This document shows, in pieces, positions 1,701 through 14,183 of a stretch of 64,000 nt of DNA (position 1 is the stretch's first letter; the number at the start of each line of letters is the position of its first letter). The notes under the pieces are model-generated. The model was not told where the DNA came from and ran no database searches. It was given only the letters and a program-made list of their open reading frames with translations. Source of the DNA: Pseudomonadales bacterium (GTDB lineage: Bacteria > Pseudomonadota > Gammaproteobacteria > Pseudomonadales > JAUIET01). The translations under genes were made by a program, and so were the position numbers. The stretch spans positions 10,405 through 74,404 of the forward strand of contig JBBKXJ010000257.1 of assembly GCA_037969395.1 (NCBI GenBank), given 5' to 3'.

Positions 1701-2966
1701 ATGGAAATCATAAACTCATACGGCACCGTCTTTCTCATTATGGCCATCGTGTTTGGTCTTTATATGACCTGGGGAATAGGCGCCAACGATGTCGCCAACG
1801 CGATGGGTACCTCAGTAGGTTCCGGGGCGATTACGGTCAAACAGGCGATTATCATCGCCGCCATTTTTGAATTTGCCGGCGCTTTTATCGCCGGGGGTAA
1901 TGTCACGTCGACGATTCGCAAGGGCATTGTAGATTCCAGCTCAATTGTCGATGCGCCGGAGATTTTGGTGTACGGCATGCTGGCGTCGCTGCTGGCTGCC
2001 GCTATCTGGTTGATGATCGCGTCGTCGCGTGGCTGGCCGGTTTCTACCACACACACCATCGTTGGCGCGCTGGTCGGCTTTGCGCTGGTCGGGCTTGGGC
2101 CCGAGGCGGTGGAATGGGGCACGGTTGGCCAGATCGTTGCAAGCTGGGTGGTCTCGCCGGTGCTGGGCGGCACCATTGCCTTCCTGCTGATGATGAGCAT
2201 TCGAAAGCTAATACTTAACACCGAAAATCCATTTGCCAGCGCCAAGCGCTGGGGGCCGGCCTATGTTTTTCTGGTTGGATTTATTATTTCTCTGGTAACT
2301 TTATTCAAAGGTTTGAGCCACCTGAACCTGGAACTGTCGGTGGGCGCAAGCTTCATTTCGGCGCTGGTGATTGGCATCGGCGTTGCAGGCATTGGCTGGA
2401 CATTGATTAACCAGGTACAAGTTGACCCTGGTGCCGACCGTGATTTTCACTTTGCCAGTGTGGAAAAAGTGTTCACGCCGATGATGATATTTACTGCTTG
2501 CGCCATGGCGTTTGCACACGGCTCCAACGACGTAGCTAACGGCATCGGTCCACTGGCCGCGGTGGTTAGCATTGTGCAATCCGGTGGTGAGGTGGCACAG
2601 ACATCAGCTCTGCCGCTGTGGATATTGATACTGGGCGGCTTCGGTATCGTCGTCGGCCTGGCAACGCTTGGCTATCGAGTAATGCAAACCATCGGCACGC
2701 GCATTACCGAGCTGACGCCCAGCCGTGGTTACTGCGCGACACTGGCCGCCGCAGCAACGGTAGTGCTGGCGTCGCGCACCGGTTTGCCGGTGTCGACGAC
2801 TCATATAGCCGTCGGCGCGGTGATTGGCGTTGGTCTGGCGCGCGGCATCGGTGCCATTGACCTGCGCGTGATCGGCGGTATCGTCGTTTCCTGGTTTGTC
2901 ACGCTACCCGTCGGTGCCGGTCTGGCGGCGCTGTTTTTCTTTACCTTGAAAGGCATCTTCAGTTAA
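1701..2966 (+). CDS. pitA: inorganic phosphate transporter, PiT family
   Basis: 421-aa polytopic membrane protein. Duplicated PiT signature: GANDVANAMGTSVG in the N-terminal half and GSNDVANGIGP in the C-terminal half. Confidence 0.92.
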   Translation: MEIINSYGTVFLIMAIVFGLYMTWGIGANDVANAMGTSVGSGAITVKQAIIIAAIFEFAGAFIAGGNVTSTIRKGIVDSSSIVDAPEILVYGMLASLLAAAIWLMIASSRGWPVSTTHTIVGALVGFALVGLGPEAVEWGTVGQIVASWVVSPVLGGTIAFLLMMSIRKLILNTENPFASAKRWGPAYVFLVGFIISLVTLFKGLSHLNLELSVGASFISALVIGIGVAGIGWTLINQVQVDPGADRDFHFASVEKVFTPMMIFTACAMAFAHGSNDVANGIGPLAAVVSIVQSGGEVAQTSALPLWILILGGFGIVVGLATLGYRVMQTIGTRITELTPSRGYCATLAAAATVVLASRTGLPVSTTHIAVGAVIGVGLARGIGAIDLRVIGGIVVSWFVTLPVGAGLAALFFFTLKGIFS

Positions 2967-3143
2967 ATTTTTGTTACCATCCAGCGTTAAATTTGATATA
3001 CAAAACGGTCATGTGCGAGCGTTGCAAGTCGTATCCTTTGCGTGCGCGTGCGCGCCGCGCGGCCTGGACCTCAAGTACGAAAAACAGGCACCCTTTTTGA
3101 GTCGCGAGTCGGGCTTGATGGCAGCCCCCAGTTTGCAAGGTGA

Positions 3144-3734
3144 ATGCCCTTGAAAACGGTCGAGGTCGACGACGTCGAATGGGTCAAAGGCATTGCGGTT
3201 CCGCGCGGCGTACATTTCCGTCAAATCATCGTTACCGGTCCACCCTGCAGCGGTAAGTCAACGTTGATTCAAAAGCTGGGCGGCTGGCCCGAAGAAGGCT
3301 ACGTAGACCTCGCGCAACGCGACTGGTGGCGCAGTCGCTGCCTGGCATTCAGGCCGCGTGAAGTGCATTTCGGCATTCCGTTCGAAGGCTTTCGCGAAAG
3401 TCATGCCGTGTTTGACCCCGAATGGCTGGCGGCACCCACCCCGATCAATTTAAAGCTGATACAGATACCCCCCGAAAAACGCTATTTTTTCGATATCGAC
3501 TGGCGGCGCCGCTTTATGTTTGATTTTCAACTGCTGCCAGCCGCGAGACTTTACGCCGTGCGCAAAGCCAGAGCCACTGCGGGAACACACCCAGTAGATA
3601 TAAACCTGAAGAAAAAAGCCGTAGAACGCCAGTGCGCCGTGTATCGGCAGTTAGCCCAGCACTTTAGCCGCTGCGGCATCGGCGTGATTGTACGCACCAG
3701 TTTCGACGGCTTACCGCGCTACGTGGTTGATTAG
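3144..3734 (+). CDS. P-loop NTPase/kinase-like protein of unknown function
   Basis: 196-aa ORF with ATG preceded by AAGGTGA. Walker A is GPPCSGKST. I recognise no further family. The 3' end overlaps the convergent phosphoesterase gene by 24 bp. Confidence 0.6.
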   Translation: MPLKTVEVDDVEWVKGIAVPRGVHFRQIIVTGPPCSGKSTLIQKLGGWPEEGYVDLAQRDWWRSRCLAFRPREVHFGIPFEGFRESHAVFDPEWLAAPTPINLKLIQIPPEKRYFFDIDWRRRFMFDFQLLPAARLYAVRKARATAGTHPVDINLKKKAVERQCAVYRQLAQHFSRCGIGVIVRTSFDGLPRYVVD

Positions 3735-5219
3735 CCCGCGGTCGGTAACGCATGCCTGCCGCTCGTGCGCTGCAAACTCGGCTGCAGAGGGCTGCTCGTT
3801 CAGCCACTCCAGCAGCGCTTCGGTCGGATAAGTTTGCGGCACCATGGTGCCGTCGATGCGAGTAAACAGGCCTACCTGGTTGGCCCGGCAGCTCATGACT
3901 ACGTGATGGTGCTGAGTGTTATCAACGTCCAGCCACAGCGTTCCTTCTTGCGAGCGCGGGTAATGACCCACGATAAACGGTGTATCAGCATCAACCTGCA
4001 GACTCTTACGAAAACGGCGCACATCACCGCTGCTATAGCCAGCGGGGAAACGCGTGCTGCGTGCCCGGTTCCAGGTAATTTCGTGCACCAGGTCGGGAAA
4101 TTGTCTGGCGTTAATCAGCATCTCCAGCGAACACTTACTGCGCATTGGCCCGGCGTGGCAGGCAATAAAGTCAGGCGTTACCACCGCCAAAGGCGATTGC
4201 CGATAAAATAGCTCCAGCGCGGCGCGGTATGCTTCACCACGGGTTTTAACAACGTGTTTCTCCCATAACAGGCCCTGCGGCACGCCCAGCTTCATCAGGT
4301 CATGCGAAAAGCTGTCATGGTTGCCTATAATATAGAATACTTGCCGGGGAAAGCGCAGCTTGAGCTTGAAAATAAGATCCATGATCAATAAAGAAGTGTG
4401 CATCGATTCGGCGCATTCGGGCCGCTCGGAATGCACTGCGTCACCGAGTATAACCAGCGCCGCCGTGCCCTCTTGCAAGCTTTCCAAAAACGAATTTTCA
4501 CTCAGAATTTTCAGCAGGTTATCAACTTCGGCATGCAGGTCGCCTAACACAATAGGCGTTAGCTGCTCGGGCAATGCAACCACAGCACCGGGATTGCCGA
4601 AGTCATCCTGCGCGCGCCGCGCATCATGCTCTAACAGTTGGTTAACCTCGGTAATGGTCTGCAGCGCTGCCTCGGCTGACAGCGGCTGTAGCGGACCGCC
4701 GAATATTTCTTTTACCTGTAGCAAGGATTGGGCCCGCTGGCCGTCTAATTGTGTCCTGCGTGGCTGATGATCGATCAAAGTCACGTAAGTGCCCAGTTCC
4801 GAAATTGGGTCACGAAATACCAGCGCGTCGCCGCTGTGACTCACCGAAAAATGACGCCGAAAAGCTTCCCGAGGCGAACTGAATACGTATTGCTGATACG
4901 CCACATCGCTATCGATGCCAAGTGTAGTATTCGGCGTCAGCCGCTGAAAATGGGCGATGCCGTGACCGTAGCGCTGCGGGTCAAACAGAATAAAATCATA
5001 CGCTGTCTGATCAGTGCCAGAGCCCGGGCGCGGGTCAGGCTGAAGATGCAGAATCTGCTTGCCCAGTTCGACTTCAAAGGTCGGAAAACCCATGATGGGA
5101 ATGCGTATTTCTCTGCCAGAAAGACGCAACTTTTGCGCCAGTTCGGGCACAACGGTCTCACATTCTGGCCGAAAATAACCTTGGATGTTTTTCCAGATTG
5201 ATTGCTTGTTGGTATCCAT
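3711..5219 (-). CDS. PPP-family (calcineurin-like) metallophosphoesterase with N-terminal FHA-like region
   Basis: Metallophosphatase motifs in order: GDLHAE, LGDAVHSE, GNHD, CHAGP, VGHYP. The N-terminal part has an FHA-like pattern (TTLGID...RRHFSVSHSGDALVFRDPISELGTYV). I prefer the start at MDTNKQ (5219, AGGA 7 nt upstream) over the longest ORF start at 5309. Confidence 0.75.
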   Translation of the reverse strand: MDTNKQSIWKNIQGYFRPECETVVPELAQKLRLSGREIRIPIMGFPTFEVELGKQILHLQPDPRPGSGTDQTAYDFILFDPQRYGHGIAHFQRLTPNTTLGIDSDVAYQQYVFSSPREAFRRHFSVSHSGDALVFRDPISELGTYVTLIDHQPRRTQLDGQRAQSLLQVKEIFGGPLQPLSAEAALQTITEVNQLLEHDARRAQDDFGNPGAVVALPEQLTPIVLGDLHAEVDNLLKILSENSFLESLQEGTAALVILGDAVHSERPECAESMHTSLLIMDLIFKLKLRFPRQVFYIIGNHDSFSHDLMKLGVPQGLLWEKHVVKTRGEAYRAALELFYRQSPLAVVTPDFIACHAGPMRSKCSLEMLINARQFPDLVHEITWNRARSTRFPAGYSSGDVRRFRKSLQVDADTPFIVGHYPRSQEGTLWLDVDNTQHHHVVMSCRANQVGLFTRIDGTMVPQTYPTEALLEWLNEQPSAAEFAAHERQACVTDRGLINHVAR

Positions 5220-5480
5220 TGCGGGTCCTGGAACTGGATCACTGCGAACACTATATATCAGTGCAGCGGCTGGATAACAGCTTTTTTCGCCCACTCGGGG
5301 CAGCACCACTCAGCCACTGTTACACTAACGCACGTGCCAATTGATCCAGATCAAGTTACGTTTGAATTAGCCTGGCAATAGCGCGACAAAGACTATTTAA
5401 TATTCAAAGAGATCGCTACGCACGCTGGTGAGAATTATAGCGACCCGGCCCTTCAATCGAAGCATACAGGACGGTACATA

Positions 5481-7766
5481 ATGGAAAAGGCTGAACTCAA
5501 GACTTCACAGCCGAAGCACACTAATAAGTCAGCGGTTACTACTGCGGTGGCAGAAAAGACCGTCGAGTCGCCTGCTGCGCAGACGAATTCTGCGTCCGGC
5601 GAGCAGCCGGCGCACGCTGAAAAATTTGACCTCGATGCGCCGGAGCTGTATCTAAACCGTGAGCTGACCTGGCTGGAGTTCAATCGCCGGGTACTGCATA
5701 TGGGTGCCAACGAGCAGACACCGCTGCTGGAGCGAGTCAAATTTCTCGCTATCATCAGCAACAATCTTGACGAATTTTTTATGAAACGCGTCGGCGGTTT
5801 AAAGCAGCAAATTGCCGCTGGCATCCGCACTCCTACTGTCGACGGTCGCACAGCGCAGGAACAGTTGGCGGCATGCCAGGCGACAGTACGCGATTTGCAC
5901 GAGGAACAAAACCGTGTATTTCGCGAACTGCTGGGCTTGCTCGAAGCGCAGGATATTCGACTTACCCGTTACACCGATCTGCAACCGACAGAACAGGAGA
6001 CGCTGCGCGCCCACTTTATAACCAATATTTTTCCATTGCTTACCCCATTGGCGATGGACCCGGGACATCCGTTTCCGTTCATCTCCAATCTCACTCTGAA
6101 CTTACTGGTAACGCTGCGCTATCCCGGTGGCAGCAAAAACTACACAGCAAGGGTAAAAGTGCCGGTGTCGAAAGACGTTGCGCCGCGCTTTCTGCAAGTT
6201 GGCGACAGCCACACTTTCGTCACCCTTAACGACGTGATCACCGCTAACCTCGACCTGCTGTTTCCCGGCATGGAAATCGTGTCCTGCGAGCTGTTTCGGG
6301 TAACTCGCAACGCGATTGTGGAGGTTGAGGAAGAAGAGGCCGACGACTTGCTGGAAATGATCGAATCGGAACTGCGCGACCGCCACTTCGCCCCCATTGT
6401 ACGCCTGCAGGTTGAAACCGGTATGAGCCCGGAGCATCGCGGTATGCTCGCGGCCGAACTTGGCCTGAACGAAGACGCCGATGTGTTCGATGCCGAATCA
6501 TTGATGGCAATGCGCGATTTGTTCGAGATAGCCGAGCTGGACATTGCCGCGCTGCACGACGCGCCGCACACCCCCATCGACCATACTCGGCTGGCCCACG
6601 ATTCGCGTAATATTTTTCACATCATAAGAGAACGCGGGGCGCTGCTGCTGCAGCATCCGTATGAGTCTTTCAGCAGCAGCGTGGAACGCTTTCTGCGTAC
6701 CGCCAGCGAAGACCCCAAAGTGCTTGCTATCAAGATGACCTTGTACCGAACATCCGAGAAAAGCGACATTATTCAATCGCTGGTTGAGGCGGCGCGCAAT
6801 GGCAAGCAGGTGGCGGTGCTGGTCGAATTAAAAGCCCGCTTCGACGAAGCCGCCAACATCCGCTGGGCACGGCGGCTGGAACGGGCCGGCATTCATGTCA
6901 CCTACGGTGTGATCGGCCTTAAAACCCACAGCAAAGTCATTCTGGTAGTACGCAAGGACTATAGCGGGCTGCAACGCTACGCCCACATTGGCACCGGTAA
7001 TTACCATGTGGGCACCGCCAGTATGTACTGTGACCTGGGTATGCTGACTAACGATGCAGCTATTACGCAAGATCTGACCGAGCTGTTTAACTCCCTGACA
7101 GGCTACTCCCCTCCGCAGCGCTATCGCAAACTACTGACCGCCCCCTTCACCCTCAAAAAGGCATTGATAGAGAAAATCGACCGCGAGATCAAGCTGCACT
7201 CTGCGAATTCGCCTGGTCTTATCCAGCTAAAAATGAACGCGCTTGAGGATGTCGATATTACCAAAGCGCTGTATCGTGCTGCCGAGGCGGGAGTACCGGT
7301 CGATCTTATCGTGCGCGACACCTGTCGACTGCGACCGGGTATTGCAGGCCTGACAGACAGCGTGCGAGTTATTAGCGTTGTCGGGCGTTTCCTCGAGCAT
7401 GCACGCATCTACTATTTCAAAAATGACGGCGCTGAAGAATACTACATTGGCTCGGCCGACCTGATGAGCCGCAACCTGGAAAGCCGTGTGGAAGTGGTCG
7501 CCCCGGTGGAGAATGACAAGCTCCAACAAGAGCTGCGCTTAATACTCGATGTACAACTTTCCAGCCAAACTAACGTCTGGGAAATGCAGTCTGATGGCAG
7601 CTACAAGGAGCGCCATGCAGCCGAAGGTAAAAAATCGCTTAGCCCGCAGGAAACTTTCATCGAGCTGGCGCAAAAGCGGATGACGGCAGCGAGTAAACAT
7701 CGCCAGTCGAAACTGCGTAAGAAATTGCTTAGCCATTTTCACAATCGTCTGAAAAGCAGCAGCTAA
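5481..7766 (+). CDS. ppk1: polyphosphate kinase 1
   Basis: 761 aa. PPK1 N-domain motif ELYLNRELTWLEFNRRVL. Two PLD-like C-terminal domains (GLKTHSKVILVVR..., FLEHARIYYF). Confidence 0.95.
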   Translation: MEKAELKTSQPKHTNKSAVTTAVAEKTVESPAAQTNSASGEQPAHAEKFDLDAPELYLNRELTWLEFNRRVLHMGANEQTPLLERVKFLAIISNNLDEFFMKRVGGLKQQIAAGIRTPTVDGRTAQEQLAACQATVRDLHEEQNRVFRELLGLLEAQDIRLTRYTDLQPTEQETLRAHFITNIFPLLTPLAMDPGHPFPFISNLTLNLLVTLRYPGGSKNYTARVKVPVSKDVAPRFLQVGDSHTFVTLNDVITANLDLLFPGMEIVSCELFRVTRNAIVEVEEEEADDLLEMIESELRDRHFAPIVRLQVETGMSPEHRGMLAAELGLNEDADVFDAESLMAMRDLFEIAELDIAALHDAPHTPIDHTRLAHDSRNIFHIIRERGALLLQHPYESFSSSVERFLRTASEDPKVLAIKMTLYRTSEKSDIIQSLVEAARNGKQVAVLVELKARFDEAANIRWARRLERAGIHVTYGVIGLKTHSKVILVVRKDYSGLQRYAHIGTGNYHVGTASMYCDLGMLTNDAAITQDLTELFNSLTGYSPPQRYRKLLTAPFTLKKALIEKIDREIKLHSANSPGLIQLKMNALEDVDITKALYRAAEAGVPVDLIVRDTCRLRPGIAGLTDSVRVISVVGRFLEHARIYYFKNDGAEEYYIGSADLMSRNLESRVEVVAPVENDKLQQELRLILDVQLSSQTNVWEMQSDGSYKERHAAEGKKSLSPQETFIELAQKRMTAASKHRQSKLRKKLLSHFHNRLKSSS

Positions 7767-8034
7767 CCGCTGCTGTTAGATGCCACAGCCAGATAACAGC
7801 ACGAGCTTTGCTCGCGATAACTATGCTGCGCCAACAAAGTTCACCGGTGTGGTAGCAACAGGCGAACAGGCCTGAGAGCAACAGCAGGACGACGAACTCG
7901 CTGCTGTAGCTAGCTGGCATCGCTGGCTCGAATGCCTTGTACGATAGGGTTATAATAACTGGGCGACGCAGTTGCCCGAAATTTCCCTGGCGACTGCCCA
8001 ACATGTCCCTTGCACCAGCATGCCTCAGGCATTA

Positions 8035-9675
8035 ATGAAATCGACAATAATGGCAACAGTCTCTGCGGCACGACGTGCAAAGCAAACAGTCTCAACAGAA
8101 TTTTTAATTCCCGGCCAGCTCAGCGCCGATCAGATACTGGCGCAGCTGGTACAACACGTTCGCCTGAGCGCCGAGCCGGCACGCACCGTACGCCGCACCT
8201 TTTACGATACCTTTGATTGGCGGCTGTATGCTAACGACGTCATTATTGAAGATCGGCAAGACGGTAAACAACGAACACTGCTGTGGCATAGCCTCAGTAT
8301 TGGCAATAAAGGTAACAACGGTGGGCAGACTGTCTCTGCTGCTCCGCTTCGATTTGCAAAAGATTTGCCCGCCAGCCAATTTCGCGACCGGCTTGAAGCG
8401 ATAATCGAAATGCGCGAGCTGATGCCGCTACTGCAGATTACCGCGCAAGTGCGCTGGCTGCGAGTGCTGGACAAAATCGACAAAACAGTCGCGCGCCTGG
8501 TGATTGAAACAAGTACCGTTCGCCGCCGTCAGGGTAGCAAAGCTCACCCGTTGCCCGACCGAGTCGTCGTCATGCCGGTGAAGGGCTACCAGAAACCGAG
8601 CGTAAAAATAGTATCTCTGCTGGCAGCGATGGATCTCGCAACCACTAGCGAAGACGTCGTGTTAACGTCGCTCGCACTGGTCGGCCACACGCCTGGCGAT
8701 TATTCCTCAAGGCTTGACCTGCAACTGGACCCGTCAATGCGCTCTGATCAGGCAGTGCGCAACATAATGCAGCGCCTGCTGGATGTTATGCTCGCCAATG
8801 AGAACGGCACGCGGAAAGGAACCGACACGGAATTTCTGCACGATTTTCGGGTGGCAATACGTCGCACCCGGTCCGCACTGAGTCAGATAAAGGGCGTGAT
8901 GCCGGAGCGCACGCTTAATCGCTACAAACAGGAATTCGCCTGGCTGGGCCAGGTCACCAGCCCGCTACGCGACCTTGACGTATACCTGCTCAGTTTTGAT
9001 GACTATCGCGACAGCCTGCCAGAATCAGAGCGCGCCAATATAGAGCCGCTGCGAGATTTTCTTTTGCGCCAACAGCAACGCGAGCACAACGCGCTGAAGA
9101 AATCGCTGGGGTCAGCCCGCTATCGTCGCCTGATGCAGGACTGGCGCAAATTTCTCAAGCAATCGGTGAACAAAAACTCCACGCTGAAAAACGGCAGCCG
9201 GCCTATCTTCGACCTCGCCCGGGAACGCATCTGGAAAACATATCGACGCGTCATCAGGGAAGGGGAAGCAATTGACGCCGGCAGTCCGGCTGAGGCGTTG
9301 CACGATCTGCGCAAAAACTGTAAAAAATTGCGCTATTTAATCGAGTTTTTTCAAAGCCTGTTTGCTGCGAAGAAAATAAAGACGCTACTAAAAACGCTTA
9401 AATCTCTGCAAGAGAACCTGGGCGATTTTCAGGACTACGAGGTGCAGGTGACGACATTAAAACAATTCAGCCAACGCATGGTGGCGGAGGAGGCAGCGCC
9501 TACCGAAACGCTGCTGGCGATGGGCATGCTGATTGAAGGACTGGAACGGCGCCAACAGCAGGCTCGGGATGAATTCAGTGATCGCTTCAAGCAGTTTGCA
9601 CAGGCAGACAACCGTGCGCGCTTCCAAAATCTGTTTGCGCTACCTGCGGTTATAAATAAGGATGGCAAGGCGTGA
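8035..9675 (+). CDS. CYTH-like and CHAD domain-containing protein
   Basis: The C-terminal half carries the CHAD pattern (FLHDFRVAIRRTRSALSQIKG, LHDLRKNCKKLRYLIEFF). The N-terminal half looks like a CYTH beta-barrel (RRTFYDTFDWRLY...) but I see no clear ExExK motif. The start is placed at MKSTIM (8035); the longest ORF begins at 7972. Confidence 0.8.
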   Translation: MKSTIMATVSAARRAKQTVSTEFLIPGQLSADQILAQLVQHVRLSAEPARTVRRTFYDTFDWRLYANDVIIEDRQDGKQRTLLWHSLSIGNKGNNGGQTVSAAPLRFAKDLPASQFRDRLEAIIEMRELMPLLQITAQVRWLRVLDKIDKTVARLVIETSTVRRRQGSKAHPLPDRVVVMPVKGYQKPSVKIVSLLAAMDLATTSEDVVLTSLALVGHTPGDYSSRLDLQLDPSMRSDQAVRNIMQRLLDVMLANENGTRKGTDTEFLHDFRVAIRRTRSALSQIKGVMPERTLNRYKQEFAWLGQVTSPLRDLDVYLLSFDDYRDSLPESERANIEPLRDFLLRQQQREHNALKKSLGSARYRRLMQDWRKFLKQSVNKNSTLKNGSRPIFDLARERIWKTYRRVIREGEAIDAGSPAEALHDLRKNCKKLRYLIEFFQSLFAAKKIKTLLKTLKSLQENLGDFQDYEVQVTTLKQFSQRMVAEEAAPTETLLAMGMLIEGLERRQQQARDEFSDRFKQFAQADNRARFQNLFALPAVINKDGKA

Positions 9676-10418
9676 AAGTCATTGCCGCGTACAACATTAA
9701 AGGTGGGGTCGGTAAAACGGCTACTGCCGTTAACCTTGCCTATCAGGCCGCGCGCGAAGGCGCCGCGACTTTAGTATGGGATCTTGACCCACAGGGCGCG
9801 GCCAGTTATTACTTTCGCATCAAGCCTAAAATCAAAGGTGGCGGCAAACGGCTGGTACGCGGCCAGCGCGACCTGGATGATTTCATCCTCGGTACTGACT
9901 TCGAATGCCTCGACCTGCTGCCGGCAGATTTTTCCTATCGCAATATGGATATCTTCCTTGAGCACAGTGAAAAACCGGCGCGTCAACTGCGCAGACTATT
10001 GCGACCATTTGAAGATGAGTACGACTACGTGTTTCTCGACTGCCCGCCGAGTATCTCGCTAACCTCAGAGAACGTGTTCGTCGCCGCCGATGCGTTGTTG
10101 CTGCCGACTATACCGACCACCTTGTCGCTGCGCACTTTTAAGCAGGTGGATAAGTTCTTCAAACAGGAACAGCTTGATACCATCAAGTTACTGCCTTTTT
10201 TCAATATGGTTGATCGGCGCAAACAGCTGCACCGCTCGATTATCGACGCGCCGCCAGACCAGTTGACTGGCCTGCTGCAAACACACATTCCCTACAGCAG
10301 TGAGGTAGAGCGCATGGGCGTACATAGAGCGCCCGTGGGTGAGTTTGCGCCTCGCAGTCGACCTGAGTTGTGTTACCAGGCGCTGTGGCAAGAGGTCAAG
10401 AAAAAAGTGGCCAAATAG
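9672..10418 (+). CDS. ParA/Soj-type P-loop ATPase (orphan, no ParB partner)
   Basis: 248 aa. Deviant Walker A NIKGGVGKTATAVNLA, then WDLDPQG. The GTG start overlaps the CHAD stop (GTGA, 4-bp overlap). No HTH extension and no parB nearby. Confidence 0.88.
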   Translation: MKVIAAYNIKGGVGKTATAVNLAYQAAREGAATLVWDLDPQGAASYYFRIKPKIKGGGKRLVRGQRDLDDFILGTDFECLDLLPADFSYRNMDIFLEHSEKPARQLRRLLRPFEDEYDYVFLDCPPSISLTSENVFVAADALLLPTIPTTLSLRTFKQVDKFFKQEQLDTIKLLPFFNMVDRRKQLHRSIIDAPPDQLTGLLQTHIPYSSEVERMGVHRAPVGEFAPRSRPELCYQALWQEVKKKVAK

Positions 10419-10466
10419 ATCAGCACTAAGTTTTTACAATCTAACATTAAACTGGTATTTTGCGGA

Positions 10467-11120
10467 ATGCGTGCAATTATAACCAGACACTATAAAACCA
10501 TTCAAAACGCCGCCGACGAAATCATGGGTTGGGGCGACGCACCGCGTCACCGCGGCTGGCGCGGCGACGTTGACTTCGTTGAATCACGCTTTCAGCGACG
10601 CGGCTGGATATTCGACGCCGTGTATTCAAGCGATCTGGAACGGGCGCGACAAACGGCGCTGTTTTACGCCCAGCGCCGTGATATAGGCGTTGTTCACAGC
10701 TCTGTCGCGCTCAACGAGGTTAATTACGGCAAGCTGTACAAAAAGAAAAAGAAGTGGGTCGCCGAAAACTACCCAAAGCATAAAAAAGACCCTGACCTGG
10801 TCTATCCGGAAGGCGAAAGTTTTCGCCAGATGCAAACACGCAGCGTGCAATTTATTACTGACATGACCAGGATTCACCCGCATGATACTGTGTTAATTGT
10901 CGTGCACGCCGGTGTGATACGCGGCCTCGTCAGCCATTTTTTAAAGCTTGATTATGCCGACCATTTGCAACACAAAATATCGCATCGCTACATTGGCAAG
11001 TTTATATTCGATGGTAGCGACTGCATCCGCTACAACGAAAAGGGCGAGCGCTCCGGCTTTGTGACCGACCGGATAATCAAGTTACCTGTTGATATACCGA
11101 CCTCAAGCACTGGCAAGTAG
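10467..11120 (+). CDS. histidine phosphatase (phosphoglycerate mutase-like) family protein
   Basis: 217 aa. N-terminal RH motif (IITRHYKT) and distal VVHAGVIRGL histidine motif. Unusual lysine run YKKKKKWVAENYPKHKKD. Confidence 0.7.
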   Translation: MRAIITRHYKTIQNAADEIMGWGDAPRHRGWRGDVDFVESRFQRRGWIFDAVYSSDLERARQTALFYAQRRDIGVVHSSVALNEVNYGKLYKKKKKWVAENYPKHKKDPDLVYPEGESFRQMQTRSVQFITDMTRIHPHDTVLIVVHAGVIRGLVSHFLKLDYADHLQHKISHRYIGKFIFDGSDCIRYNEKGERSGFVTDRIIKLPVDIPTSSTGK

Positions 11121-11123
11121 AAG

Positions 11124-12689
11124 TTACTTCTTCGCCAGCGCCGCTTCCAGCCCCTCACAAAGCGTCTTCAGTACTTTTATTCTGGCGTACGGTTTATCGT
11201 TGCCTTCAACCAGTATCCACGGCGCCTGGCGCGTGCTGGTGTGTTCGATAATATCGTTGACCGCCAGTTCGTACTGATCCCAACTTTCCCGGTTGCGCCA
11301 GTCTTCGTCGGTAATTTTCCAACGCTTGTGCGGTATTTTCTCGCGCGCTTGAAAGCGCGTCAGCTGTTCGTCCTTGCTAACATGAAGCCAGTATTTAACC
11401 AACAGCAGGCCGTGATCAGTAAGCTGCTGTTCGAAGTCGTTAATTTCCGCATAAGCCCGACGCCACTCCCGCTCAGAGGCAAAGCCTTCGATTCGCTCAA
11501 CAAGAACGCGCCCGTACCAACTGCGATCAAAGATATGAAACCTGCCGTCTTTTGACAGTTGGCGCCAAAATCGCCAGAGGTAATGCTGCGCCAGCTCTTC
11601 GTCGCTAGGCGCAGCAAACGGGGTGACTCGGAACTGACGTGCGTCAAGTGCCGCTGTAATACGCCGTATAGCGCCACCCTTACCCGCCGCATCGGGCCCC
11701 TCGAACACGATGACAGCCCCCTTTTTCTGTGCCAGCGCGGCACGCGACAGCAGATTGAGCTTTGCCTGGTACTCTTGCAGCTGCTTTTTATAATCTTTTT
11801 TCGGTAGCTTGAGCGTCATATCCAACGCCGATAGCACTGTGGTTCCCAGCGTCGCGGTCTCGATTATGGCCGCATCGCTGCTGTCGTCTGCATCGCTGTC
11901 TGCTGCCGGTGACTGAGCCGAATTCGTAAGTCGTGCGCTGGACTGTAATTCGACCGCGACTTTTTGCTTTTCGCGCACTGTTTCGATATGTCTGCGTATC
12001 GCGTCACGAATGGTCGTGCCAACAGTCAAACTGCGATAGTACGGGTCCACCCCCTCGACGGTAACCCAGGGCGCAGAACCCTTGCCGGTACGCATAATAA
12101 TTCGCTCCGCAGCTTCTTCGAAGCGATCATAGTTTTCGGAGTTTTTCCAATCCTGTTTAGTGACGCGCCAGCTCGTTAACGGATTTTTTGCGAGCTTTGT
12201 GAGGCGACGTTTTTGCGCCTCGCTGCTCATATGCATCCAGAATTTCAGAATGAGCGTGCCATCGTCGGCCAGCAGTTTTTCGAAGCTAATAATGCGGTCG
12301 AGCGCCTTGTCAAAACCGGGCTCGTCGATCTTTCTGTACGCCCGCTCCAGCAGCGGCTGTGAATACCAGGCACTTAAAAACAGGCCAATTTGCCCGCGCG
12401 GCGGCAGGTCACGCCAAAAGCGCCAATACTGCGGCAACGCCTGTTCCTCTTTGGTGGGCGTTGTATAGGCCTGGGTGAATAGCCAGCGGGGGTCCATCCA
12501 CTCGTTCAGTACGTTAACGGTTTCGCCTTTGCCGCCGCCATCCACGCCACCAAATAAAATGACGACCGAGAACTTACCAAGCTCGCGCAATTGGCGCTGT
12601 ACCTCCAACAACTCCTGACGCAGTAATGGCTCGTGTTGTTTGTAAGCAGATTTCGAAACAGATTGACCCAGCTCTGCGGTTTTGAACAT
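11124..12689 (-). CDS. two-domain polyphosphate kinase 2 (class II PPK2, polyphosphate:AMP phosphotransferase-like)
   Basis: Two tandem PPK2 modules with P-loop-like motifs GGVDGGGKGE and GPDAAGKGG, joined by an acidic/Ser-rich linker. The start is taken at MFKTAELG (12689, GAGGA RBS) rather than the longest ORF (12758). Confidence 0.88.
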   Translation of the reverse strand: MFKTAELGQSVSKSAYKQHEPLLRQELLEVQRQLRELGKFSVVILFGGVDGGGKGETVNVLNEWMDPRWLFTQAYTTPTKEEQALPQYWRFWRDLPPRGQIGLFLSAWYSQPLLERAYRKIDEPGFDKALDRIISFEKLLADDGTLILKFWMHMSSEAQKRRLTKLAKNPLTSWRVTKQDWKNSENYDRFEEAAERIIMRTGKGSAPWVTVEGVDPYYRSLTVGTTIRDAIRRHIETVREKQKVAVELQSSARLTNSAQSPAADSDADDSSDAAIIETATLGTTVLSALDMTLKLPKKDYKKQLQEYQAKLNLLSRAALAQKKGAVIVFEGPDAAGKGGAIRRITAALDARQFRVTPFAAPSDEELAQHYLWRFWRQLSKDGRFHIFDRSWYGRVLVERIEGFASEREWRRAYAEINDFEQQLTDHGLLLVKYWLHVSKDEQLTRFQAREKIPHKRWKITDEDWRNRESWDQYELAVNDIIEHTSTRQAPWILVEGNDKPYARIKVLKTLCEGLEAALAKK

Positions 12690-12965
12690 AGTTTGCTGTC
12701 CTCGCAAATGGCACGCTATGGACTTAACAGTCACACTGGAGTTAAGGCATTCACTCAAGCGCGTTTGCCTGCTTCCCGGTACGAAAATTTGAAACTTGAT
12801 TGTTTCCAGAAAGTCTCACGGTCTCCAACAAATGTATACTATACGTTGGTCCAGATTGTAGCAGCGCAGCAAACTGGGAGACGATCATCAGACCACGGCA
12901 ACTGCACCTGCTATTCTATTTACGGGCAAGAGGTTAAAGCGAACTATCCGCGAACAGAGGGATGC

Positions 12966-14183
12966 ATGGCAAAAATACTGGTTGAAGACAGGGATGAGCA
13001 AACCAAAGTACCTTTTTTACGCGGCATTCTGACCCGCTCGCTGCAGGATGCAGGCCTGTCTTTCGAGGCTGCTTTCGATCTCGCAACCGAAGTTCGCAAC
13101 GATCTTGGCAATAAATCGCAGATCACCACGGACGACTTGCACAGCCTGATCGTTAAGCGGCTCAGGTCGGACAAAAAGAACGATATTGTCGTCCGCTATC
13201 AACAATCGAATTTGCCACGCACGGTTCAGGTGGAACAGCGCGACGGCCAGATGCGGCCTTTTTCAAGATTGCAATATCAAAACGACCTGGAGACTATTGG
13301 CCTCGAAAGCACCGAGGCAATACGCTTTGTCGACACCTTGCACAAGCACCTGACTAATCGAAACATCGAGCAGCTGACATCTACGCGGCTGGCGATGTTG
13401 ACCTACCGTTATCTTCGACAGTCACGCGACCTGGGGCCGGCAGTAGCCAAGCGTTGGCTGGTTTGGCGTGATTTCGTCAACAGTGGTCGCGCTTTGATTT
13501 TCCTCATCGGCGGTACCGCCGGCTGCGGTAAAAGCTCGATCGCCACCACCCTGGCCAGCCGCCTTGATATAGTGCGCACTCAGTCAACTGACATGCTACG
13601 TGAAGTGATGCGTACCATGCTGCCAGAGCAACTGCTGCCAATATTGCACAAGTCATCTTTCACCGCCTGGCAGGCCTTACCGGGCGCGCTGCAAAGCAAA
13701 CGCGTGGTGCCGGAGTCTTTGCTTATCAGCGGCTATCGTGGCCAGGCTGACCTGCTTACCCTGGCACTTGAAGCGGTGATAGCACGCACCCTGCGGGAGA
13801 ATGTATCACTGGTCGTTGAAGGTGTGCATATTCAACCCTCTATGGTGGAGCAACTACGGTCGGATGAAGACGCAACGGTGATACCCATAATGCTGGCCGT
13901 GTTAAAACGCAAAGCGTTGCAACAGCGATTGCAGGGCCGCGGCGCGCAGGTGCGGCGCCGCCGTGCCGCGCGTTATCTGCAATCGTTCGATGAAATCTGG
14001 CGGCTACAGTCGTATCTTTTGTCTGAAGCTGATCGCGCTAATATTCCCATTGTCTCTAACGACGACAGAGACAAAGTATTTCGTGAGATTATGCGCCTCA
14101 CCATTAATACCCTGGCGGAAAGTTTCGATAGCACGGCAGAGGTCGTGTTTAATTCGGATGCAACTGAACCAACAAAGCAATAG
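12966..14183 (+). CDS. ATP-cone plus P-loop kinase, 2-phosphoglycerate kinase-like (COG2074-type architecture)
   Basis: Start at MAKILVEDRD (GAGGGA RBS). The longer ORF from 12633 would overlap the divergent PPK2 start. N-terminal ATP-cone-like segment (VPFLRGILTRSLQDAGLSFEAAFDLATEVRNDL). Walker A is GGTAGCGKSS. Confidence 0.65.
   Translation: MAKILVEDRDEQTKVPFLRGILTRSLQDAGLSFEAAFDLATEVRNDLGNKSQITTDDLHSLIVKRLRSDKKNDIVVRYQQSNLPRTVQVEQRDGQMRPFSRLQYQNDLETIGLESTEAIRFVDTLHKHLTNRNIEQLTSTRLAMLTYRYLRQSRDLGPAVAKRWLVWRDFVNSGRALIFLIGGTAGCGKSSIATTLASRLDIVRTQSTDMLREVMRTMLPEQLLPILHKSSFTAWQALPGALQSKRVVPESLLISGYRGQADLLTLALEAVIARTLRENVSLVVEGVHIQPSMVEQLRSDEDATVIPIMLAVLKRKALQQRLQGRGAQVRRRRAARYLQSFDEIWRLQSYLLSEADRANIPIVSNDDRDKVFREIMRLTINTLAESFDSTAEVVFNSDATEPTKQ

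Follow-up and report, generated by a model that had tools for sequence, protein, structure and literature searches.

A conserved CHAD–ParA gene pair as a candidate system for positioning polyphosphate granules

A 64,000-nucleotide stretch of a Pseudomonadales bacterium genome (GenBank assembly GCA_037969395.1, contig JBBKXJ010000257.1, forward-strand positions 10,405 to 74,404; hereafter the window, whose own numbering is used for coordinates) raises the question of why a gene for a CHAD protein, a phosin-type binder of polyphosphate (polyP), should be joined to a gene for a ParA/MinD-family ATPase. The original prediction, made from the sequence, held that the CHAD protein could be the granule-bound adaptor of this ATPase. 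Following up this prediction computationally, we found that the module is real and widely conserved, and it is best classed as a candidate ParA-type positioning system with a new cargo and a new adaptor.

We propose that the gene pair specifies a two-component system dedicated to polyP granules. The TTM-like/CHAD protein would coat the granule via the basic surface of its CHAD domain, and the ParA-type ATPase would dimerize on ATP and bind a polyanionic matrix, most probably the nucleoid. Once on the granule, the CHAD protein would engage the ATPase and stimulate hydrolysis. A ParA-type diffusion-ratchet, like that of McdAB for carboxysomes, would in this way space the granules along the cell, keep them apart and divide them between the daughters. 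We regard granule positioning by the pair as the best explanation of the evidence, with the chances for and against it about evenly balanced; that the two proteins are functional partners on polyP has, in our judgment, a considerably higher likelihood than the positioning mechanism itself.

Conservation of the CHAD–ParA gene pair

The genes share four base pairs, the GTG start of the ParA gene (9672-9674) running into the TGA stop of the CHAD gene (9673-9675). This GTGA overlap, already part of the original prediction, is read directly in the sequence and points to translational coupling of CHAD and ParA. At its other end the CHAD open reading frame (ORF), which terminates at 9675, could start in frame at 7972, 8020, 8035 or 8050. 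A start at 8050 agrees with relatives of 541 amino acids (aa) and one at 8035 with a relative of 546 aa; the gene perhaps starts at 8050, the protein then being 541 aa long.

A scan of one genome per species yielded at least 587 ParA relatives, and the best 80 (56–74% identity) were fetched with their flanks. A full-length CHAD gene lies immediately 5' of ParA on the same strand at 75 of the 79 testable loci, and stop and start overlap at 50 loci (−4 in 37, −1 in 11 and −29 in 2), with a gap of ≤17 nt at most of the others. The four exceptions comprise two loci with a different CHAD protein 0.9–2.8 kb upstream, one without any and one with a CHAD domain alone. The loci span 43–76% GC and include Sedimenticola, Methylomonas, Nitrotoga, Thiodiazotropha, Trichloromonas and metagenome-assembled genomes (MAGs) of Acidimicrobiales and other high-GC actinobacteria. 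For about 20 ParA and CHAD database clusters the longest contigs are of identical size, which suggests co-location in metagenomes. Co-occurrence and overlap are thereby borne out in several phyla, and these data support the view that CHAD and ParA form a module of two translationally coupled genes that is conserved from phylum to phylum and is not a local accident. A mirror-tree comparison of ParA and CHAD distances (Spearman 0.53–0.60) carries no information here, since a common phylogeny produces such a correlation too.

Two observations concern individual CHAD genes of the survey. The different CHAD proteins are those of Nitrotoga-like loci (L016:2173-3813 and L024:3570-5228, with L numbers as our sequence handles); the match of these proteins to the profile is confined to the CHAD core. 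At three MAG contigs (L079:6438-7998, L080:6345-8004 and L035:6962-8004) the CHAD frame is split over two frames; these are probably frameshifts from sequencing and not pseudogenes.

When the flanking ORFs of the 80 loci were all clustered de novo, no third universal gene emerged. Neighbors of the pst, pho, ppk or phosphatase kind are present at 32 of the 80 loci; those that recur are lineage-specific, namely PstS/A/B-like, PhoU, PhoB/R-like, His-phosphatase, PPK1 and PPK2 genes, with His_Phos_1 or SixA-like genes near the pair in loci other than the window's. Adjacency to ppk1 and ppk2, from which the original prediction started, does not extend to the family as its general context: ppk genes stand near the pair at only 9/80 loci, and ppk1 lies within the fetched flank at 7/80. 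We therefore rejected ppk linkage as a defining feature, compared to the 32 loci with phosphate-related neighbors.

The pair also occurs in Chlorobiaceae. The order in Chlorobaculum tepidum TLS is ppk1, an LRR-like ORF, the CHAD gene (Q8KE09), a 2-nt gap and a 247-aa ParA, and full-length Q8KE09 is the source of the crystallized CHAD domain CtCHAD. In a Chlorobaculum sp. (L081), whose ParA is near-identical to that of C. tepidum, identity to the window proteins is 50% for ParA and, over the full length, 31% for the CHAD protein. The pair was present in 6 of 7 sampled Chlorobiaceae places, with ppk1 upstream of it in 5 of the 7 loci. Between ppk1 and the CHAD gene, Chlorobiaceae carry a Pfam-less ORF of 250–285 aa whose end abuts or overlaps the CHAD start (L094:4128-4980; L095:4183-4980; L098:2647-3501; L099:2746-3501; L101:2728-3501); the one copy translated, from L095, has repeats of ~23 residues rich in Cys, Asn and Gly and an LRR-like look.

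Three Paracoccus plasmids show a different arrangement, with an RHH-like ORF, CHAD, ParA, a canonical CYTH gene and a NUDIX gene in order (L083:4299-7651; L096:2288-5653; L097:2273-5707). The first ORF encodes 62 aa with a basic N-terminal tail; it was called RHH-like by reading the sequence, with no profile behind the label, and it resembles ParG-type partners or operon repressors. The LRR-like ORF of Chlorobiaceae and the RHH-like ORF of Paracoccus were each considered as a third component of the module and set aside as lineage-specific.

The predicted polyP-binding partner and its N-terminal domain

CHAD domains bind polyP and not nucleic acids, and the CtCHAD study mutated 11 contact residues (H253, R256, R260, R296, R418/Y419, R438, K441, R385, K386, K389 and K390) (PMC6537752). 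The window protein has a Pfam CHAD score of 220 bits against a cut-off of 25.6, and its residues 223–533 (the C-terminal 310) match the C. tepidum CHAD structures 3E0S and 6QV7 with an E value of 5e-49 in phmmer. The AlphaFold2 (AF2) model of the whole protein, with a mean pLDDT (predicted local distance difference test) of 80, was matched by Foldseek to the CtCHAD–polyP complex 6QVA (E 8e-16, TMt 0.92), showing the fold of two four-helix bundles and 34% identity to CtCHAD over the structural alignment. By phmmer alignment the window protein has an identical or a basic residue at ten of these 11 contact positions; R385 alone is changed, to W. H264, R267, R271, R307, R428, Y429 and K451 (numbered from the 8050 start, residues checked) are invariant among 27 relatives. 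These alignments support a close relationship of the CHAD half to a protein whose polyP binding is experimentally proven, its contact residues being kept.

CHAD proteins, or phosins, bind granules, and we know of no function for them; nor, to our knowledge, have they otherwise been described with an ATPase partner. Set beside the known phosins (CtCHAD Q8KE09, R. eutropha PptA/PptB and E. coli YgiF), the window protein keeps the CtCHAD polyP contacts, shares with Q8KE09 its position beside a module ParA, and has the TTM-then-CHAD order of YgiF, from which it differs in that the ExExK catalytic motif of YgiF is absent from its N-domain.

This N-domain carries the conserved motif YD(S/T)FDWRLY and belongs to a family of 1410 clusters at 50% identity, nearly all of them in proteins of ~520 aa. 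Foldseek matched the whole CHAD protein model to E. coli YgiF (5A60, E 4e-11), and matches to ThTPase, CYTH cyclases and SaTTM followed at E 6e-5 to 1e-3, TMt 0.5–0.67 and ~10% identity; an eight-stranded triphosphate-tunnel fold is predicted. The label CYTH-like, under which the domain was first noted, therefore stands for the predicted fold but not for the family match or the active site. Pfam CYTH gave no match even at E 10 in the N-domains of seven diverse orthologs and is absent from the precomputed Pfam annotation of 240 homologs. Where ExExK would be expected, the first strand reads T-E-F-L-I-P, the ortholog consensus being xEFIIP, in which a nearly invariant Pro occupies the Lys position. 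A canonical CYTH enzyme was rejected as unsupported on these two grounds.

The same results bear on whether the protein is at heart a polyP-regulated enzyme, either a class IV adenylate cyclase ("ACAci") or a YgiF-like tri/polyphosphatase, to which ParA would be accessory or unrelated. The domain order of YgiF fits this idea, the invariant residues of the N-domain include several Arg, Lys and acidic ones, and an ACAci cyclase has been proposed for the Acidithiobacillus ortholog (PMC6416229). We nevertheless consider it very improbable: the missing ExExK motif, the proline in its place and the lack of a CYTH match in the seven orthologs speak against catalysis, the Paracoccus operons carry a separate canonical CYTH gene, suggesting that the catalytic TTM is supplied separately there, and an enzyme by itself leaves the conserved translational coupling to ParA unexplained.

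The ATPase and its relation to partition and positioning systems

The ATPase retains its catalytic residues. The deviant Walker A motif noted at the outset is confirmed, in the context NIKGGVGKT, and K10, K15, D37 and D39 (Walker A') and D123 (Walker B) are invariant in all 81 members of the ParA family set. No curated NCBIfam model reaches its cut-off for the window ParA. Its best PDB relatives by bit score are the Soj-type ParA 8RAY (83), HpSoj (58), TthSoj (56), McdA (41), MinD (39) and ParF (33), and Foldseek with the ParA model likewise returned the Soj-type structures 8RAY, 2BEK and 6IUB (E 1e-10 to 1e-12, TM 0.66–0.72). Homologs number more than 8000, the top 120 being at ≥68% identity. 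A clade profile scores every member of the 81-sequence set at ≥342 bits.

Two basic elements were noted in the ATPase (Table 1). The family is basic as a whole, with a median isoelectric point (pI) of 9.2 compared to 5.2 for Soj. Residues 48–67 form the basic Gly-rich stretch FRIKPKIKGGGKRLVRGQRD, in which R49, K55, G56, G57, R60, G64 and R66 are invariant and the AF2 pLDDT is 27–44; this stretch is specific to a proteobacterial/actinobacterial group. The DRRK motif is conserved at R183 (81/81), R182 (64/81) and K184 (79/81). Soj R189 and R218, in the numbering of B. thuringiensis Soj (L089), assumed equal to that of B. subtilis, are arginines needed for non-specific DNA binding; R183 stands at the first of them, and the position aligned with R218 is D or E. 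The AF2 model shows no membrane-targeting helix at the ParA C-terminus.

These basic features would also suit an ATPase that binds polyP itself, with the granule surface as its matrix or with shuttling between granule and nucleoid, and with the TTM-like/CHAD protein as regulator. The unusually high pI, the invariance of the Gly-rich stretch and the DRRK motif all fit, as does the poor order of the stretch in the model, as expected of a ligand-dependent loop. Against it, the stretch is not conserved in the module ParAs of Chlorobaculum and Paracoccus, and we know of no ParA that has polyP as its matrix; we think this reading quite improbable.

An ATPase that does not move granules over the nucleoid could be an ATP-dependent switch for granule biogenesis, size, number or surface composition, and could for example load or unload the CHAD protein or recruit enzymes. 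The genetic linkage of CHAD and ParA also fits such a switch, and recruitment switches are known among ParA relatives, BcsQ and MinD for example, with BcsQ-type models matching the window ParA weakly. The CHAD partner is a folded two-domain protein and not a disordered adaptor, and ParA, with a mean pairwise identity of 61%, is far more conserved than the N-domain (29%) or the CHAD domain (46%). The closest relatives in structure and sequence are, however, DNA-riding Soj-type ParAs, the equivalent of Soj R189 is invariant and a C-terminal membrane helix is lacking, so that we consider a switch unlikely.

The family was also compared with DNA-partition systems. The likeness to Soj/ParA–ParB–parS and to the type Ib system ParF–ParG lies in a deviant Walker A ATPase of ~250 aa, a Soj-like fold and the R189 equivalent; the differences are the absence of ParB, ParG and parS, the acidic R218 equivalent and a pI of 9 rather than 5. 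In PLSDB the family lies at 35–49% identity and ordinary ParB-linked ParAs at ≤33% (30–33% in the comparison with the known systems), and a neighbor-joining tree places the family apart from ParB-linked Soj/ParA with a bootstrap of 100/100. This split answers in part the question raised at the outset, whether the ParA forms a clade of its own.

Searches for partition components agreed with the original statement that the locus lacks parB and parS. Neither the window nor the 80 loci gave a tblastn match to Spo0J, Noc or either of two ParBs, a parS scan of the window gave one match with three mismatches compared to 2.0 expected by chance, and no repeat arrays were found at 7600–10700. Membership in ParABS was thus rejected, there being no ParB gene, parS, centromere repeats or third conserved gene.

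The idea that this ParA is nonetheless a DNA-partition ATPase of a chromosome, chromid or plasmid, with the CHAD gene as a passenger or an unconventional centromere-binding partner, draws on family members that open the record of a 1.8-Mb Halomonas replicon and that of a Pontibacter plasmid, and on the plasmid-borne Paracoccus copies with their small RHH-like gene in front. Yet a search of the window and the 80 loci found no RHH homolog, the majority of loci are chromosomal and adjoin pst/pho genes, and the binding specificity of CHAD domains excludes nucleic acids (PMC6537752); together with the empty searches for ParB, parS and repeats, this leaves DNA partition with very little to recommend it, and we give it hardly any credence.

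One family member stands on a plasmid in another setting. Marinobacter nauticus VT8 pMAQU02 (L085:6001-6747) encodes a ParA 41.5% identical to that of the window with no CHAD partner; its neighbors are a divergent pyruvate kinase with polyhydroxybutyrate (PHB)-related genes (phbB) and a BMP-family binding protein, and it may serve another cargo.

Of the systems that position cargo other than DNA, McdAB is close in design, being a two-gene set of a ParA-family ATPase and a cargo-bound partner, without ParB or parS, whose cargo is a nucleoid-associated cytoplasmic body. Orthology to McdA was rejected, as the window ParA scores 41 bits to McdA (6NON/6NOO) compared to 83 to the Soj-type ParA. No McdB-type partner or carboxysome linkage was seen, the partner being a folded TTM-like/CHAD protein and the neighbors phosphate genes, in a comparison that included no search with an McdB query. 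McdB is disordered, whereas the window partner is folded and its gene lies upstream rather than downstream of ParA; the cargo, moreover, would be an inorganic polymer granule.

Evidence against positioning, and the setting of the pair

Several findings weigh against granule positioning. First, ParB, ParG and McdB use a terminal basic peptide, and no conserved basic peptide of this type was found at the N- or C-terminus of the CHAD protein orthologs; the basic N-terminal, ATPase-stimulating peptide that had been anticipated was rejected, since orthologs begin 3–8 residues ahead of the first strand and neither terminus is conserved. Second, with an acidic residue at the place of Soj R218, DNA binding by the window ParA is not assured. 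Third, confidence in the ParA model is low (pLDDT 64; pTM, the predicted TM-score, 0.71). Fourth, the CHAD-linked ParAs were not recovered as a clade (bootstraps 14/100 and 38/100), and the family includes ParA relatives at 40–49% identity, from Halomonas, Pontibacter, Marinobacter and Sphingomonas, that lack a neighboring CHAD gene; either the linkage has therefore arisen or disappeared in the course of evolution, or those genomes encode the partner at another place. Fifth, the components can be found incomplete: locus L035 keeps the CHAD domain only, its N-domain gone, directly after ppk1, and a Chlorobium sp. (L082:687-9862) has pstC/A-like, pstB-like and phoU genes, a 368-aa ORF, TTM-like/CHAD and ppk1 with no ParA, which shows that the CHAD protein can occur alone beside Pho genes. 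Lastly, deleting phosins in several organisms did not substantially disrupt granule formation (PMC13081873).

The genes around the pair in the window are listed with the features of the two proteins in Table 1. As had been stated, the pair lies downstream of ppk1 and a two-domain PPK2 lies beyond ParA; PPK2, however, is on the minus strand with the His_Phos_1 gene in between, and being convergent it is not strictly downstream in an operon. The His_Phos_1 gene is possibly co-transcribed with the CHAD–ParA pair. On the 5' side of ppk1 (1701–5309) there are a PHO4 phosphate transporter, a 196-aa ORF with a weak P-loop match only and, on the minus strand, a 532-aa Metallophos protein. With PHO4, Metallophos and the other context genes, the CHAD–ParA pair sits in a phosphate-metabolism island. 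The ORF at 12633–14183, as called, overlaps the 5' end of PPK2, and a 51%-identical homolog also adjoins PPK2 in locus L012. Promoter and terminator scans gave sites not above the chance number, and an Rfam scan of the window found no element.

Table 1. Coordinates of the CHAD–ParA pair, of features within it and of its neighbors in the window
Feature	Position	Strand	Basis or remark
ppk1 (polyphosphate kinase 1)	5481-7766	+	four PPK1 Pfam domains; 268 bp 5' of the CHAD gene
TTM-like/CHAD protein (phosin-type polyP binder)	8035-9675	+	Pfam CHAD E 5.6e-65
N-terminal beta-rich domain, predicted TTM/CYTH fold	8095-8694	+	AF2 strands at residues 16-176; Foldseek
Long-type CHAD domain, predicted polyP-binding surface	8701-9633	+	phmmer against 3E0S/6QV7
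GTGA stop/start overlap	9672-9675	+	direct sequence reading
ParA/MinD-family ATPase, 248 aa, pI 8.9	9672-10418	+	Pfam AAA_31 E 6.8e-35, CbiA
Deviant Walker A KGGVGKT, signature Lys10 and Lys15	9699-9719	+	invariant 81/81
Basic Gly-rich stretch, residues 48-67	9813-9872	+	replaces the corresponding Soj helix region
DRRK motif	10212-10223	+	R183 aligns with Soj R189
His_Phos_1 histidine-phosphatase gene	10467-11120	+	Pfam E 1.9e-27; 48 bp 3' of ParA
Two-domain PPK2, convergent	11124-12758	-	Pfam PPK2 E 4e-137, two stretches
ATP-cone and 2-phosphoglycerate-kinase-like P-loop protein	12633-14183	+	divergent from PPK2

Even spacing of polyP granules in Pseudomonas aeruginosa involves AlgP, a histone H1-like protein with no ATPase (PMC9239181). 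AlgP and the CHAD–ParA pair would address the same problem, granule placement along the nucleoid, and differ in that the window has no AlgP-like gene. The seven closest genomic relatives carry, ~200 bp 3' of ParA, an ORF of ~125 aa (L003:8924-9301 on the plus strand; also L002, L004–L007 and L010) with an HhH (HHH_5) domain and a tail, extremely rich in Lys and Gly, that recalls AlgP; the window is without such a gene.

The original prediction knew of no characterized system of this kind. None was found in the literature searched, but the synteny itself had been noted: a folD-ppk-parA-CHAD order was reported for Acidithiobacillus in 2019 and 2024, with no positioning hypothesis (PMC6416229, PMC10892726). 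No ParA system for polyP is described in reviews of polyP and of ParA/MinD proteins or in a 2026 study of S. elongatus, and the positioning mechanism is called undiscovered there. The literature on CHAD proteins or phosins, ParA and polyP granules yielded no positioning hypothesis or experiment, though Iyer & Aravind 2002 and Tumlirsch & Jendrossek 2017 may mention ParA neighbors.

The placement and inheritance of polyP granules are an open question for which AlgP in Pseudomonas is the sole implicated factor, and the CHAD–ParA pair is as yet the strongest candidate for machinery that would place or partition them. On a chance that we put a little below even, it would be the first dedicated positioning and partitioning system of the ParA/MinD type for an inorganic storage granule, with a phosin as adaptor, in hundreds of species from at least four phyla. 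In a stronger variant, the basic ParA would itself read polyP as matrix or signal. Among the carriers of the module are organisms that can be cultured (Chlorobaculum tepidum TLS, Methylomonas lenta, Sedimenticola selenatireducens, Paracoccus spp. and Acidithiobacillus), some of which are genetically tractable, and the hypothesis is therefore directly testable. An operon of a phosin and a ParA-type ATPase gives both proteins a testable role and, if the proposal is true, would extend the ParA/MinD family to a new class of cargo.

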